Assembly (NCBI GenBank): GCA_964383765.1
Contig: CAYLHT010000004.1
Coordinates: 3,539-67,538, forward strand
Length of the DNA stretch: 64,000 nucleotides
Reading direction: 5' to 3'
Origin: an uncultured Gammaproteobacteria bacterium
Lineage (GTDB): Bacteria; Patescibacteriota; Patescibacteriia; SBBC01; CAIJZX01
Positions 9,884-18,556 of the stretch are shown piece after piece. The notes below the pieces were generated by a model. That model was not told the origin of the DNA, did no database searches, and saw only the letters and a list, made by a program, of their open reading frames with translations. Positions within the stretch are counted from its first letter, which is position 1. Every line of letters begins with the position of its first letter. A program made the translations under genes and the position numbers.

Positions 9884-9989
9884 TTGCCTTTGATGGATCC
9901 CTCTTTAAGACTTGACTTTCCTATTCTTTCAGGTAAGGTCTCGTCGTTAAGCCGACATCGCGCCGTCCAACCCTTTCAAGGAGTATCCC

Positions 9990-10382
9990 ATGGCCATGGA
10001 TTGGAAGCTACGCTCGTTCTGGAACGTCTATCAGCGACTGGCGCCCTTGATTGGACCGGTGCACATCGTCCGGCTCAACCCAGCCGATGGTCGCCAGCCG
10101 GTCATGCTGTGTCAACGCCTCGGCGTTCGGCTCGTCACCCGCCAGGAATACCTGGATGCCGTCTCGTCCGGTCTGACCCACGCTCCCGGATTTCCGATCG
10201 CCGTTGCTGACCTGTTCTACGACAACTGGGGTGATACGATCCGACATGGCTACTTCGTCAACCCCTACCCGAGCCCTCGTCCCGCCTGGGCCGATGAGTA
10301 CTACAATTGGAGGCAACGTCGCGTCAGACGGCCGTTCCATCAGCTCTGGCGTTTCGCCGTCGCTCGGGTGGCCACTGTGTAG
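9990..10382 (+). CDS. Hypothetical protein in a GC-rich, foreign-looking module
   Basis: Upstream TTGACT-16-TAAGGT promoter-like element and an AGGAG SD 7 nt before the ATG. High-GC codon usage. No known domain. Confidence 0.5.
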   Translation: MAMDWKLRSFWNVYQRLAPLIGPVHIVRLNPADGRQPVMLCQRLGVRLVTRQEYLDAVSSGLTHAPGFPIAVADLFYDNWGDTIRHGYFVNPYPSPRPAWADEYYNWRQRRVRRPFHQLWRFAVARVATV

Positions 10383-10450
10383 CCATCAACCACCGCTTGG
10401 TTTCATGACCTGGCGGTGTTTTATTGCTTGCACCTTTCGTTCCGTTGAAA

Positions 10451-11431
10451 CTAGTCTACGTGGATTCGTTTACGATAATCAGCAATCATGGGAATCCGAC
10501 TGACATACCCTGGATACATATCGACATAATGCCCGCGCAGGTCTTCTGGCTTCTGCCCGCCATACCGACCGGCCAGCCGCTCGTACTCGAAGGCCGGCGT
10601 TGTGAGATCGCCGCCCCGCACCCATTTTTCGCGTAATCCGGTGGATCCAATCGGTCCATGCGCCTCGATCGCTCCGATCCAGATCCGTCCCTCGCCATCG
10701 CGGCAAAAAATGTAGGTAAATTTTTCATCGTTCGAAGGCAGAGCCTCCATCTCGACCGGTCCGTATAAGGTTGTCGACTGACGCCAACGCTGTCCGTGGG
10801 CACGCATATTTGGCATCTGATTGAGATCGGAGAGCTTGACCTTCTCCGGTTCAAGTTTTCCACCCACCCGAAAGTATTCTCCGGTTAACTCAATCGCTCG
10901 ACGGTCGACCTGATTCCGGTAGGTTTGGGATCGATCAATCGCGTGCGCCGTTCCAGCTAAAACTAAGTCTGGATGTTCAAGTTCCAGGGCTGATCGTCCG
11001 CTGATGTCTGCCAACCCAGGCTGCACTAACGTAGGAACAGTGACGCTTTCTTCACTGTACCCTTTCGAGTACCACTCCACCTTTCCATCGTGTGAGGTGT
11101 AGGTAGGTAAATAGCGCCACAGCCCGTGAGAGTTACTTAAGTAATAGCTGCGAGCGACGACGTTCCCTTGGTGTTCAATATACGCCACGACCGCCTTCCG
11201 ACCTTCATGCAATGCGTATGGATCAGACGACAGCCAACGAACGCCCTCTGACTCGGCCAATTGATGGCGCGGTTGTAAGGATAATTCGCGCAACGTGGCC
11301 TGGTCGAGCTCAACCCCATAAAACGGATCGCCGTGGATTTCGGTTCGTTTAAGAGTCTCAGCTTGCTCCGCCAGCGAAAGTTCTTGAACGGCCTCGGGTG
11401 GCAGTGATGGTTGGGGTTCACGTTCGGACAT
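10451..11431 (-). CDS. Hypothetical protein in the same GC-rich module, convergent with the previous gene
   Basis: 326-aa ORF with high GC third positions. No recognised domain. Confidence 0.5.
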   Translation of the reverse strand: MSEREPQPSLPPEAVQELSLAEQAETLKRTEIHGDPFYGVELDQATLRELSLQPRHQLAESEGVRWLSSDPYALHEGRKAVVAYIEHQGNVVARSYYLSNSHGLWRYLPTYTSHDGKVEWYSKGYSEESVTVPTLVQPGLADISGRSALELEHPDLVLAGTAHAIDRSQTYRNQVDRRAIELTGEYFRVGGKLEPEKVKLSDLNQMPNMRAHGQRWRQSTTLYGPVEMEALPSNDEKFTYIFCRDGEGRIWIGAIEAHGPIGSTGLREKWVRGGDLTTPAFEYERLAGRYGGQKPEDLRGHYVDMYPGYVSRIPMIADYRKRIHVD

Positions 11432-11549: not shown

Positions 11550-11621
11550 GGGTCCCTAACTCAATGGTAGAGTATCAGCCTTTTAAGCTGAGAGTTCTGG
11601 GTTCGAATCCCAGGGGACCCA
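11550..11621 (+). tRNA. tRNA-Lys (anticodon UUU)
   Basis: Cloverleaf: acceptor GGGTCCC/GGGACCC, D-arm ACTC/GAGT, anticodon stem TCAGC/GCTGA with loop CTTTTAA, T-arm CTGGG-TTCGAAT-CCCAG, discriminator A. CCA is not encoded. Confidence 0.85.
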
Positions 11622-11784
11622 CTAACGTCGGCGAAACCGACATTAATAATTTACTGCGTAGTCCGGGTACGGTCACAAAACTGTGCCCCTGGGACGAGAA
11701 GGGTTGAAGTGAGCTAGTCGAGCCAGGCTCGACGCAGCGAACGATCGGCGAGTTGCCGGTGGCAAGTCGCCGCAACCCAGGACA

Positions 11785-11806
11785 GAGTCCCAGGGGGGGC
11801 CACTAA
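11785..11806 (+). repeat. Partial direct repeat of the tRNA-Lys 3' end (gagtcccagggggggccactaa versus gaatcccaggggacccactaa); possible degenerate att remnant
   Basis: About 19/22 identity to tRNA positions 11600-11626, 165 nt downstream of the tRNA. Several small hairpins lie between them. Confidence 0.25.
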
Positions 11807-11859
11807 TTGAGACAACTTTTTAAGAAATCGCCGAATCTCGGCGAAGGTCTGCATAAACA

Positions 11860-12429
11860 ATGAGTTCGAAAAAGACTCAGGGCCAGGCGCCAGAACGGAG
11901 AATAATAAAGCTAAGAGCTGAGATCGAATCGATTGAGTCTTTCTTTTATGGTGCCAAAGATGGCGATAATGATGATGCTTTCTTCATGTTGAAGATAAAA
12001 CGAGACAATGTTATCAGAGGCATGATATTGGAGTTACATTTATCAATCGAAGATCTACTCAATGGCGTCATCAAAAGCCACATTCTAAGTACAAAGACTG
12101 GGAAAGAGCTGGTTGCTTCTTCAGCGGTTGACGAGTTGCTTGTTGGTGAGAGGGCGATGGGTTTTAAGCAGAAAATAATCTATCTGAAAGCTGCATCATT
12201 GATTCGGCCTCAACTTTTCAATGACTTAGATACATTAAACCGACTAAGGAATAAAGCAGGGCACAATTGGACACTAAATCGCGTTATTAGAAAAAAGATA
12301 AAGCGGAATAAGAGGAAAAGGCCATTGCTTGAATATAAGGGTCGTAATTTGTATCAACATGAAGTCATCAAGGAATTTATTGCCCACTACGGAAGGATTT
12401 ATTATCGCTTGTGGCTGAAATTCGCTTGA
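11860..12429 (+). CDS. HEPN-like domain protein (possible Abi/toxin-type RNase) in an AT-rich segment next to tRNA-Lys
   Basis: 189 aa. C-terminal RLRNKAGHN fits the HEPN Rx4-6H motif. AT-rich codon usage contrasts with the neighbours. Confidence 0.4.
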   Translation: MSSKKTQGQAPERRIIKLRAEIESIESFFYGAKDGDNDDAFFMLKIKRDNVIRGMILELHLSIEDLLNGVIKSHILSTKTGKELVASSAVDELLVGERAMGFKQKIIYLKAASLIRPQLFNDLDTLNRLRNKAGHNWTLNRVIRKKIKRNKRKRPLLEYKGRNLYQHEVIKEFIAHYGRIYYRLWLKFA

Positions 12430-17197: not shown

Positions 17198-17203
17198 AAC
17201 TCC

Positions 17204-18556
17204 CTAGTCCGCGAAGAATGGATACACTGTTCGGCCGCCATCAATTTCTTTTATGGTCGACAATTTTTTTGACGTCGTGTTGTACGCATTAAATATCACT
17301 TTCATCGTTACATTATCTCTTGGAACCGGGTACCGGATTGAAGTTTCAAAAACAAAAATACTTCCATTCGATGGGAAAGCGGGGTATTGATCCCATTGTA
17401 GAGAAGACGTATTGGGGTCGAATTTCGGTTCCTCAAAAAACTTGGTCGCTGTTCCTGTAGTAACATCGATTACGTAACCGCTATGAGAAAAGCTGAGAAC
17501 CAGTTGACTGTTATTATTAAACCATTCGAGGTTATAGATATAGCCAAGTACGTTTTCCGGCGATGCATCCTTAACATCACTTAATGTAAGTGTCAGGCTA
17601 GGGGTTGTGATATTCGGTAGATCAAAGATGTGTATTTTTAAGGGGGAGCTGTCTGGTACCGGAATAGCCATTTTTTTGCCGTCCGATGAAAAGGCTGGTC
17701 CCGAGTTGTTGCCATAATCCGCTGATTTAACCTTTGATCCGTCCTGTTGGGAGATGCGGGTAACTGGGCTCGCGCTTCCAATCCCTTCGCCGGCCCGATG
17801 GGTGTACAAAAAGCCGTTCTCTTGATCCCACAGATCATAGAAAGTATCCAGATTAGATGGCCCCAGTATGATTTGGTCGGTTAAAAAAGTATAGGTATAA
17901 TATTTGCTTGATACTGGATTCGGACCGGCGAACTCACTTTTATAGGCTTCCGAGTTTTTATCGAACTTGGCATACTGCACAATGACCTGGTGCAAGTCAG
18001 AGGAGTAGACATACGGACCGACCACTTCATAGACGGTTTCGCCGGTCAGTGGGTTCGGGAGGCTCGTGGATTGGATGGTGTTTTTTTCTCGATCCCACAG
18101 CCAAATTTTTCCATTGCCCTGTAACCAAGCCAAACGATATTGATCAAAGGTCAACCGAGTGTACCCAGCAGGGGTCGTTTCTGGATTTGAAGCTTTACCA
18201 TCATAGGTAATCGTTTGCAGCGTGTTGATAGTCTCGCTCCCGGTTGCTTGGGTGGAGTAGAAAATTCGTCCTGACCCGAGTGGCTGTTGATTGATTCTGC
18301 TGATGCTGGTGTTGGTAACCACTGGGACATTTTCATTTTGAAAGAATTCGCACGGATTCTCGACGGTCCCGCCTAAACACGGTGCATTATTATTTTTATT
18401 GTGAGTCGGGAAAAGTTCATCGATCGACGCGGGTTGAACTGAGTCTGGGGACCACGGCCATTTCAATCCCGGTGTCACCGCCCAGTACACAAGCACAATA
18501 AACCCAGCAATGGCCAAGGCCATCACAGCGATCGGGAGAATATTGCCTTTGCGCAT
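17204..18556 (-). CDS. Hypothetical secreted/membrane-anchored protein, possibly beta-propeller-like
   Basis: N-terminal TM helix, then a 420-aa region rich in Ser/Thr/Gly with repeated WD-like segments. No confident domain. Confidence 0.4.
   Translation of the reverse strand: MRKGNILPIAVMALAIAGFIVLVYWAVTPGLKWPWSPDSVQPASIDELFPTHNKNNNAPCLGGTVENPCEFFQNENVPVVTNTSISRINQQPLGSGRIFYSTQATGSETINTLQTITYDGKASNPETTPAGYTRLTFDQYRLAWLQGNGKIWLWDREKNTIQSTSLPNPLTGETVYEVVGPYVYSSDLHQVIVQYAKFDKNSEAYKSEFAGPNPVSSKYYTYTFLTDQIILGPSNLDTFYDLWDQENGFLYTHRAGEGIGSASPVTRISQQDGSKVKSADYGNNSGPAFSSDGKKMAIPVPDSSPLKIHIFDLPNITTPSLTLTLSDVKDASPENVLGYIYNLEWFNNNSQLVLSFSHSGYVIDVTTGTATKFFEEPKFDPNTSSLQWDQYPAFPSNGSIFVFETSIRYPVPRDNVTMKVIFNAYNTTSKKLSTIKEIDGGRTVYPFFAD

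Follow-up and report, generated by a model that had tools for sequence, protein, structure and literature searches.

HEPN domains are four-helix up-down bundles in which inserts between helices 2 and 3 are frequent, and their R-x4-6-H motif sits where core helix 3 ends and the loop to helix 4 starts (PMC3710099). The arginine of the motif is directly followed by a polar residue (N, D or H), and helix 2 carries a conserved acid (PMC3710099). In the catalytic HEPN proteins the active site is composite, each of two protomers contributing its motif; RNA is cleaved independently of metal ions, and 2',3'-cyclic phosphates are left at the ends of the products (PMC3710099). The subject of this text is a HEPN-like gene from a member of the Patescibacteria, located at 11860..12429 on the forward strand of a 64-kb stretch of contig CAYLHT010000004.1; this whole stretch is called the window in what follows. 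The gene encodes a protein of 189 amino acids (aa) for which the best explanation, held here with moderate confidence, is a solo HEPN ribonuclease (RNase) involved in conflict or defence.

The closest described systems include lone HEPN proteins and the families related to DUF4145. HepS ('HEPN Solo'), an abortive-infection protein of 212 aa encoded by the Gifsy-1 prophage, forms an auto-inhibited tetramer; once activated by tail-tip proteins of a phage, it cleaves tRNAs in the anticodon loop (PMC13043305; PDB 9oij). RAZR (PD-T7-4) is an abortive-infection (Abi) RNase that combines a zinc finger with a DUF4145-type HEPN domain and is activated by assembly on phage ring proteins (PMC13017515). 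MtlR and DUF4145, in turn, have been grouped together in a 'DUF4145-like' assemblage of HEPN domains (PMC3710099).

The gene of the window and the elements of its product are the following.

11860..12429, forward strand: stand-alone gene for the HEPN-like protein (P0001), ATG start, 189 aa; the whole protein is predicted to be one HEPN domain with inserts.
12016..12051, forward strand: conserved stretch R53-x6-H60-x3-E64, in the long predicted helix 37-76 (HEPN helix 2).
12106..12192, forward strand: helical insert between core helices 2 and 3 (helices 83-95 and 102-111), from the secondary structure of the model.
12238..12270, forward strand: motif predicted to be catalytic, N127-R-L-R130-N131-K-A-G-H135-N-W137 (R-N-x3-H), with which the predicted helix 117-135 (HEPN helix 3) ends on its C-terminal side.
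12274..12354, forward strand: beta-hairpin insert, rich in Lys/Arg, that follows the motif (residues about 139-165; RVIRKKIKRNKRKRPLLEYKGRNL), with strands in 142-163 and a predicted local distance difference test (pLDDT) score above 95.
12358..12423, forward strand: C-terminal helix 167-188 (HEPN helix 4), from the model, with conserved F173, Y177 and Y181.

An earlier note on this DNA had called the open reading frame (ORF) at 11860..12429 on the forward strand, with 189 aa, and had matched its NRLRNKAGHNW to the HEPN motif. The ORF is confirmed, and this sequence is found at residues 127-137. The arginine and the histidine of the motif, R130 and H135, are encoded at 12247-12249 and 12262-12264, and their spacing is R-x4-H, with an asparagine directly after the arginine. 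The view that the motif closes the helical core does not hold, since the beta-hairpin insert (about 139-165) and then the helix 167-188 come after it.

The evidence that carries the assignment comes from the family rather than from the single protein. A word-indexed search with the 189-aa protein returned two relatives only, and the single-protein search for related loci found none among the GTDB species representatives. An exhaustive HMMER scan of 1.84 billion cluster representatives, with family representatives counted at 50% identity, gives 139 of them at E <= 1e-3 and 64 at E <= 1e-10, most of which are 175-205 aa long and align end to end. At 90% identity, a profile search counts at least 210 family clusters, all of them named 'hypothetical protein' and without a precomputed Pfam domain; some derive from metagenome-assembled genomes (MAGs) of Terriglobales and Limnocylindrales. 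Judged from its sequences, this is an unnamed and unannotated family of proteins of about 190 aa.

Conservation was counted with all family hits aligned to the family hidden Markov model. The loss of R or H among homologues, which the earlier note had named as a finding that would count against a HEPN protein, is not what the alignment gives: R130 is kept in 116/116 sequences and H135 in 112/115. The remaining motif residues are conserved to a similar degree (N131 in 112/116, W137 in 108/115, N127 in 111/119). In helix 2, R53 is found in 126/129 sequences, H60 in 106/131, and E64 in 122/131, with a further 8 carrying D. Between two homologues that are 79% identical (L096 and L098) the ratio of nonsynonymous to synonymous substitution rates (dN/dS) is 0.24.

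Structure prediction had been proposed as a check on the HEPN call. An AlphaFold2 model built with a 62-sequence alignment reaches a pLDDT of 93.4 and a predicted template-modelling score of 0.85, and is thus confident; its topology is HEPN-like, and helix 3 ends with the motif. A model from the single sequence (pLDDT 40) is of no use. In the good model, helices 9-30 and 37-76 correspond to HEPN helices 1 and 2, helices 83-95 and 102-111 to an insert spanning 83-111, helix 117-135 to helix 3, the short strands 142-163 to the hairpin insert, and helix 167-188 to helix 4. E64 is a candidate for the helix-2 acidic residue, by analogy with the role described for that acid in PMC3710099; the residue four positions after it is N, T or S, whereas helix 2 of HEPN domains typically shows E-x3-[KR]. 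The hairpin insert has conserved residues of its own (K153, P155, L157, Y159, G161 and L164) and may be an RNA-binding or regulatory element. A beta-hairpin directly after the motif is also known from Csx1 (PMC3710099). Together with W137, the residues R53 and H60/E64 and the Lys/Arg-rich hairpin 139-165 could be candidates for substrate binding or for the sensing of a trigger, a suggestion that is pure inference.

Searches with the members of the family lead repeatedly to HEPN models. When each of 62 full-length members is scanned against Pfam, weak matches are obtained to DUF4145 in 9, Abi_2 in 9 and HepT-like in 4, and also to Swt1 (3), Cthe_2314 (3), AbiU2, AbiV and pEK499_p136; the families with the largest numbers of matching members are HEPN families. 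One member, P0063, scores 24.9 bits against DUF4145 (E = 2e-5), where Pfam's gathering threshold is 23.1 bits, and the 189-aa protein itself does not match this model even at E <= 10. The family therefore lies outside the current DUF4145 model, as its neighbour, and a few bridging members tie it to current HEPN models. The Pfam search proposed in the earlier note gives one member above threshold and no match for the query alone. Scanned with PADLOC, a few members show weak matches, below threshold, to AbiD, Csm6, CARF-HEPN and Cas13b.

Comparison with proteins of known structure points in the same direction. Against the PDB sequences, the family profile matches the HEPN domain of Csm6 (E = 0.035), HepS (0.59) and HepT (6m6u and 5yep, about 0.65), and all of these matches to HEPN RNases align on the L-N-x-x-R-N-x3-H helix. 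A broader profile finds E. coli MtlR at E = 0.41, and hhalign places residues 88-136 of the family on residues 74-123 of MtlR, with RNKAGH on REELNH (P = 8e-4; probability 25%, against a single-sequence template). In a Foldseek search of the PDB, MtlR comes first as well (6kcr_C, probability 0.99, E = 0.18, template-modelling score 0.39-0.45, which is below significance), and is followed by 3brj (MtlR), YggD and several HepT/HEPN toxins. Because MtlR and DUF4145 share the DUF4145-like assemblage, sequence and structure point to the same corner of the superfamily. Two further candidates were rejected. Ribosomal protein S2, the only PDB match of the single sequence (E about 0.07), is taken as chance. 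The N-terminal helix region, residues 9-55 (11884-12024), matches the C-terminal helices of AphA (PadR-type, PDB 1yg2) at E about 0.3 in two profile searches, and this match was set aside as probably an effect of helical or coiled-coil composition.

Overall, the near-invariant R-N-x3-H, the profile matches led by HEPN families and the position of the motif at the end of helix 3 in the model support the HEPN call of the earlier note, and a HEPN fold is very probable. From sequences and model, the protein is best assigned to a new HEPN family that has no name as yet and lies close to DUF4145/MtlR in the superfamily.

The likeness to the group of DUF4145 (PF13643), MtlR and YggD consists of an alpha-helical HEPN domain whose helix 3 ends with R-N-x3-H, and of one member over the Pfam threshold, with MtlR heading the fold matches in the PDB and also matching weakly, by profile, in the same region. 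One homologue lies beside an Mrr-type nuclease gene, an arrangement that echoes the fusions of DUF4145 with restriction endonucleases. On the other hand, the query and most of the members (108/111 at E <= 0.01) have no DUF4145 match. The present family also differs by an invariant R53, the H60/E64 signature, the basic beta-hairpin after the motif and the tryptophan two positions after the histidine, and it is always stand-alone, at about 190 aa, unfused to restriction endonuclease, helicase or zinc-ribbon modules.

With HepS, the protein shares a single HEPN domain of comparable length (212 vs 189 aa) and R-x4-H; HepS likewise lacks a partner or inhibitor and is often found on prophages, and the family profile matches it weakly on the motif helix. 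However, there is no significant sequence similarity between the two, and 9oij is outside the top 50 Foldseek matches. The tetramer, the tail-tip trigger and the tRNA cleavage are demonstrated for HepS, whereas the present protein is known from sequence alone; its host is one of the Patescibacteria, and no prophage is recognisable here. RAZR is similar in being a single-gene defence with a divergent DUF4145-type HEPN domain, essential R and H, and no antitoxin. It differs in its N-terminal zinc finger, its R-x7-H spacing (R146/H154) and its 24-mer ring. The present family lacks the zinc finger and keeps strictly to R-x4-H, and no RAZR/PD-T7-4 model was matched in PADLOC.

The lactococcal AbiD/AbiF proteins (Abi_2) are comparable as single-gene Abi systems with a C-terminal R-x4-H HEPN motif, and weak matches to them are seen (Abi_2 in 9/62 members, PADLOC AbiD in 4/62). 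These matches remain below the curated thresholds (best E = 0.015 and 0.006, respectively), Abi_2 proteins are larger, and no plasmid homologue was found. HepT, of the type II/VII toxin-antitoxin systems HepT/MntA (HEPN-MNT), is a small HEPN RNase with R-x4-H to which the family shows the weak matches already mentioned (6m6u, 5yep, and the Pfam HepT-like model in 4/62), but the MNT nucleotidyltransferase that is its partner is absent here and in all 11 contexts studied. By analogy, the protein would work like HepS, RAZR or AbiD/AbiF; it is a member of none of these families, nor of Pfam DUF4145 as now defined.

The genes surrounding the family were examined in 11 independent contexts, the window among them. 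These contexts have no ORF of at least 30 aa in common and no common upstream sequence, and the short ORFs adjoining the homologues carry no antitoxin-type Pfam domain and no nucleotidyltransferase domain. In the window, Pfam scans of all adjacent ORFs revealed neither a nucleotidyltransferase nor an antitoxin-like gene, and no integrase or defence gene either. That the gene has no MNT or antitoxin partner, as proposed from the window alone, is therefore borne out here by the Pfam scans and holds in the 10 other contexts too.

Several contexts are mobile or defence-like. One is a block of about 9 kb (L004, 6881-16582) in which the HEPN-like gene comes first, accompanied by a large terminase, a 154-aa HTH-like (helix-turn-helix) protein, a DUF3631 protein and an integrase. 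This block is integrated phage- or satellite-like, and it adjoins a 152-aa ORF in which sigma-70 region 2 alone is present, possibly a sigma-factor gene that the insertion truncated. In L008 (2336-3817), the homologue lies 196 nucleotides (nt) downstream of an Mrr_cat restriction-endonuclease-type gene on the same strand, near the genes for ribosomal proteins L10/L12 in a low-GC genome (35%; GC, guanine-cytosine content). The homologues of L009-11 have insertion-sequence (IS) transposases nearby. Among the 11 contexts, L004, L008 and L009-11 are thus on the mobile or defence-like side, and the window, L096 and L098 on the ordinary one.

The pair L096 and L098 is informative about how the gene moves. 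The DNA of L096 at 9935-10576 and of L098 at 9937-10576 is 83% similar over a stretch that opens about 65 nt ahead of the start codon and closes 3 nt beyond the stop codon, and the two loci have nothing else in common within 10 kb on either side, nor any obvious repeats or recombinase. As far as the sequences go, this pattern suggests a gene-sized unit of transfer. The base composition of the gene is also atypical, its GC being below that of the flanks in 10/11 loci, over a range of host GC from about 35% to 66%. In the window, ORF 11860-12429 has a GC of 0.396, whereas windows of 570 nt average 0.529 +/- 0.038 (z = -3.4); no more than 0.24% of these are this low, and every one of them overlaps the ORF. 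It is the lowest-GC stretch of the 64 kb, in agreement with the AT-rich composition that had been noted against its neighbours. Further GC dips in the window, at about 17200-17600 and about 950-1520, are milder (about 0.41-0.42).

A relation with phages is suggested by the matches to PHROG 5483, a group of phage proteins of unknown function, in 29/62 members (an 'abortive infection' PHROG is matched by 3), and by the best BFVD fold match, an Agrobacterium phage protein (probability 0.99, E = 0.22). Taken together, these sequence data describe what appears to be a partner-less accessory gene relocating on its own, which behaves as a sporadically distributed, horizontally moving accessory cassette.

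That the protein is an endoribonuclease is suggested by the known catalysis of HEPN proteins together with the fact that R130, N131, H135 and the residues of helix 2 hardly vary, and a catalytic RNase is accordingly considered probable. In the proposed mechanism, the protein would dimerise or form a larger oligomer, so that two R130/N131/H135 motifs meet, and the helix-2 residues R53 and E64 would assist this composite site. The substrate of the metal-independent cleavage would be tRNA, rRNA or mRNA, and the cut ends would carry 2',3'-cyclic phosphates. The gene is accompanied by neither an antitoxin nor another partner, so the protein would be silent by default, kept inactive by its own conformation until a foreign trigger, for instance a phage protein, appears, as in HepS and RAZR. 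A defence or Abi role, drawn by analogy, falls somewhat short of an even chance. The Abi or orphan-toxin role suggested in the earlier note stands as far as the lack of a partner is concerned; its defence part is argued from family analogy and some mobile contexts, and PADLOC assigns 0 families to the 189-aa protein.

A number of observations weigh against a solo HEPN RNase of defence. On its own, the 189-aa protein has no meaningful match in Pfam, NCBIfam, PADLOC or the PDB, and at E <= 0.01 no more than 3/111 members match DUF4145 and 3/111 HepT-like. Conservation of the motif is no proof of catalysis, because some MtlR proteins keep R-x4-H and are nonetheless regulators. The surroundings of the gene in the window are housekeeping (P-type ATPase, glycosyltransferase, exonuclease, DnaB, YbaB, RecR) and not a defence island, and the homologues of L096 and L098, on long contigs, also lie amid ordinary chromosomal genes. 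A HEPN-like homologue occurs in 0/80 related patescibacterial DnaB loci, and tblastn found no match in 50,697 phage records nor in a plasmid collection.

Upstream of the gene, three further features are found.

11550..11622, forward strand: tRNA-Lys(ttt), upstream neighbour, given as context only (ARAGORN; Rfam tRNA model 73.3 bits).
11623..11859, forward strand: structured spacer or leader between tRNA and ORF (folded as 11623-11862), with a minimum free energy of -97.4 vs -72.2 +/- 4.3 kcal/mol for shuffled sequence, z = -5.9.
11785-11808, forward strand: incomplete direct repeat of the 3' end of tRNA-Lys (GAGTCCCAGGGGGGGCCACTAA, compared with GAATCCCAGGGGACCCACTAA at 11605-11625), 52 nt before the ORF start.

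The tRNA-Lys is on the same strand, 237 nt upstream of ORF 11860-12429, so the adjacency reported in the earlier note is correct; that the tRNA belongs to the same system as the HEPN-like gene is not shown. The stronger claim, that of a tRNA-associated hotspot, is weakly backed and not established. One other homologue, L001, lies about 700 nt after a tRNA-Leu, nine other independent loci have no tRNA nearby, and the window has no distal attachment (att) repeat and no integrase or terminase near the gene. An island targeting the tRNA is not supported either: the sole tRNA-like repeat (11785-11808) sits between tRNA and ORF and not beyond the latter; this copy could be an old att remnant. The spacer of about 240 nt folds into nested GC-rich hairpins with a 10-bp long-range pairing of 11686-11695 with 11787-11796. 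It has no Rfam match and no second copy in the window, and upstream of eight homologues there is no equivalent structure (z -1.6 to +0.7) and no common sequence.

The neighbours of the gene are a 326-aa protein, a PMT_2 glycosyltransferase, an RNase_T-type exonuclease, DnaB, YbaB and RecR, with a DUF1801 protein, a membrane protein and the P-type ATPase upstream in the window. The DnaB is at most 67% identical to those of Falkowbacteria, Uhrbacteria, Magasanikbacteria and Moranbacteria MAGs, which places the host in the Patescibacteria, without any species representative close to it. Among the related DnaB loci, L020 (1949-4130) is the sole one with an RNase_T exonuclease beside DnaB, a case of partial synteny. 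There, a tRNA-Lys(ttt) lies directly beside the exonuclease, in the opposite orientation to the window. Since L020 has neither the HEPN-like gene nor the PMT_2 glycosyltransferase, the interval between tRNA and exonuclease is variable in this lineage. For the 326-aa ORF (10451-11431, reverse strand), which lies beyond the tRNA, Pfam gives no match and none of the 80 related DnaB loci holds a homologue; the protein is uncharacterised and may be specific to the lineage.

Other explanations of the gene differ in how much of this evidence they accommodate. The R-x4-6-H motif is a short pattern, and the protein has two more R-x(4-6)-H matches by chance, which would be in keeping with a spurious ORF or a fortuitous motif. 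The likelihood of this is negligible: full-length homologues exist in more than 100 clusters, the motif column is invariant, the dN/dS of 0.24 and the pLDDT of 93 agree, and both chance ORF and chance motif are excluded on these grounds. The most serious rival, though an unlikely one, is a regulator or RNA-binding protein, that is, a non-catalytic MtlR-like factor or a housekeeping RNA-processing nuclease. MtlR is indeed the best structural match, in addition to a weak sequence match, and some MtlR proteins keep R-x4-H while being repressors (PMC3710099). The ordinary chromosomal genes around the window gene and two other loci, and the abundance of the family in soil lineages (homologues from Terriglobales and Limnocylindrales), would fit such a function too. 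A regulator or housekeeping enzyme is harder to reconcile with the lack of any conserved neighbourhood or operon, with near-identical proteins in unrelated loci and a patchy distribution in which none of the 80 related DnaB loci carries the gene, and with the atypical GC in 10/11 loci. Furthermore, R-N-x3-H and the helix-2 acid are near-invariant here, whereas the motif is gone from some of the MtlR family.

Two rivals keep the RNase and change what it serves. The protein could be the toxin of a toxin-antitoxin pair whose antitoxin escaped recognition because it is a tiny protein or else an RNA, with the structured leader as one conceivable source. Many HEPN proteins are toxins (PMC3710099), and this improbable reading would give a role to the spacer 11623-11862, which folds far better than shuffled sequence (z = -5.9), to the long 5' intergenic regions of several homologues (470-660 nt) and to the short unrelated ORFs that abut some of them (122 aa in L001, 120 aa in L015, 77 aa in L009). 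However, no ORF of at least 30 aa is common to independent loci, and the adjacent short ORFs are without antitoxin-like Pfam domains. The upstream regions of eight loci are neither unusually structured nor alike in sequence, the spacer has no Rfam match, and L096 and L098 conserve only 65 nt of leader. Alternatively, the gene could serve a mobile element and not the host, as an RNase of a prophage or satellite that acts in superinfection exclusion, in host shut-off or in competition between elements, and that was orphaned here when its element decayed. The homologue that is the first gene inside a terminase/DUF3631/integrase block, PHROG 5483 in 29/62 members, the Agrobacterium phage protein as best BFVD fold match, and the partial tRNA-Lys 3' copy 52 nt upstream of the ORF are all consistent with it. 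This service to an element is given only a slight probability, as the surroundings of the window gene contain neither integrase nor terminase nor another att copy and no tblastn match exists in the 50,697 phage records; it also overlaps with the solo HEPN RNase, HepS itself being prophage-encoded.

The solo HEPN conflict or defence RNase thus stays the preferred explanation. It can be taken further, to a form that is rather unlikely as it stands: a self-mobile, minimal 'solo HEPN' cassette of about 640 bp, comprising the gene and a leader of about 65 nt, that hops between unrelated sites and across phyla (Patescibacteria, Acidobacteriota, Chloroflexota). Such a cassette would combine sensing and killing in one domain of 190 aa, with R53/H60/E64 and the basic beta-hairpin as the trigger sensor. 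In the window, its control might also involve the structured, tRNA-linked leader RNA.

Patescibacteria have tiny genomes and few recognised defence systems. If the solo HEPN explanation is true, the gene would be a rare candidate for immunity or conflict in this group, and its family a widely spread new one of partner-less HEPN nucleases, missed by the Pfam, NCBIfam and PADLOC models, that would add one more model to the catalogues of defence genes. With its strictly conserved additional residues and the basic hairpin beside the active site, it would also offer, alongside HepS and RAZR, a compact case for how a lone HEPN domain stays silent and is then activated. Should the protein be an MtlR-like regulator instead, the non-catalytic side of the HEPN superfamily would be widened. 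Either way, a known superfamily is extended and nothing is overturned, and another solo HEPN would be no surprise to specialists. What makes the case mildly notable is the host, from the candidate phyla radiation (CPR), the fact that current defence models overlook the family, and a unit of transfer as small as the gene. If the cassette form is true, the protein would be among the few predicted innate-immunity effectors of the ultra-small CPR bacteria.

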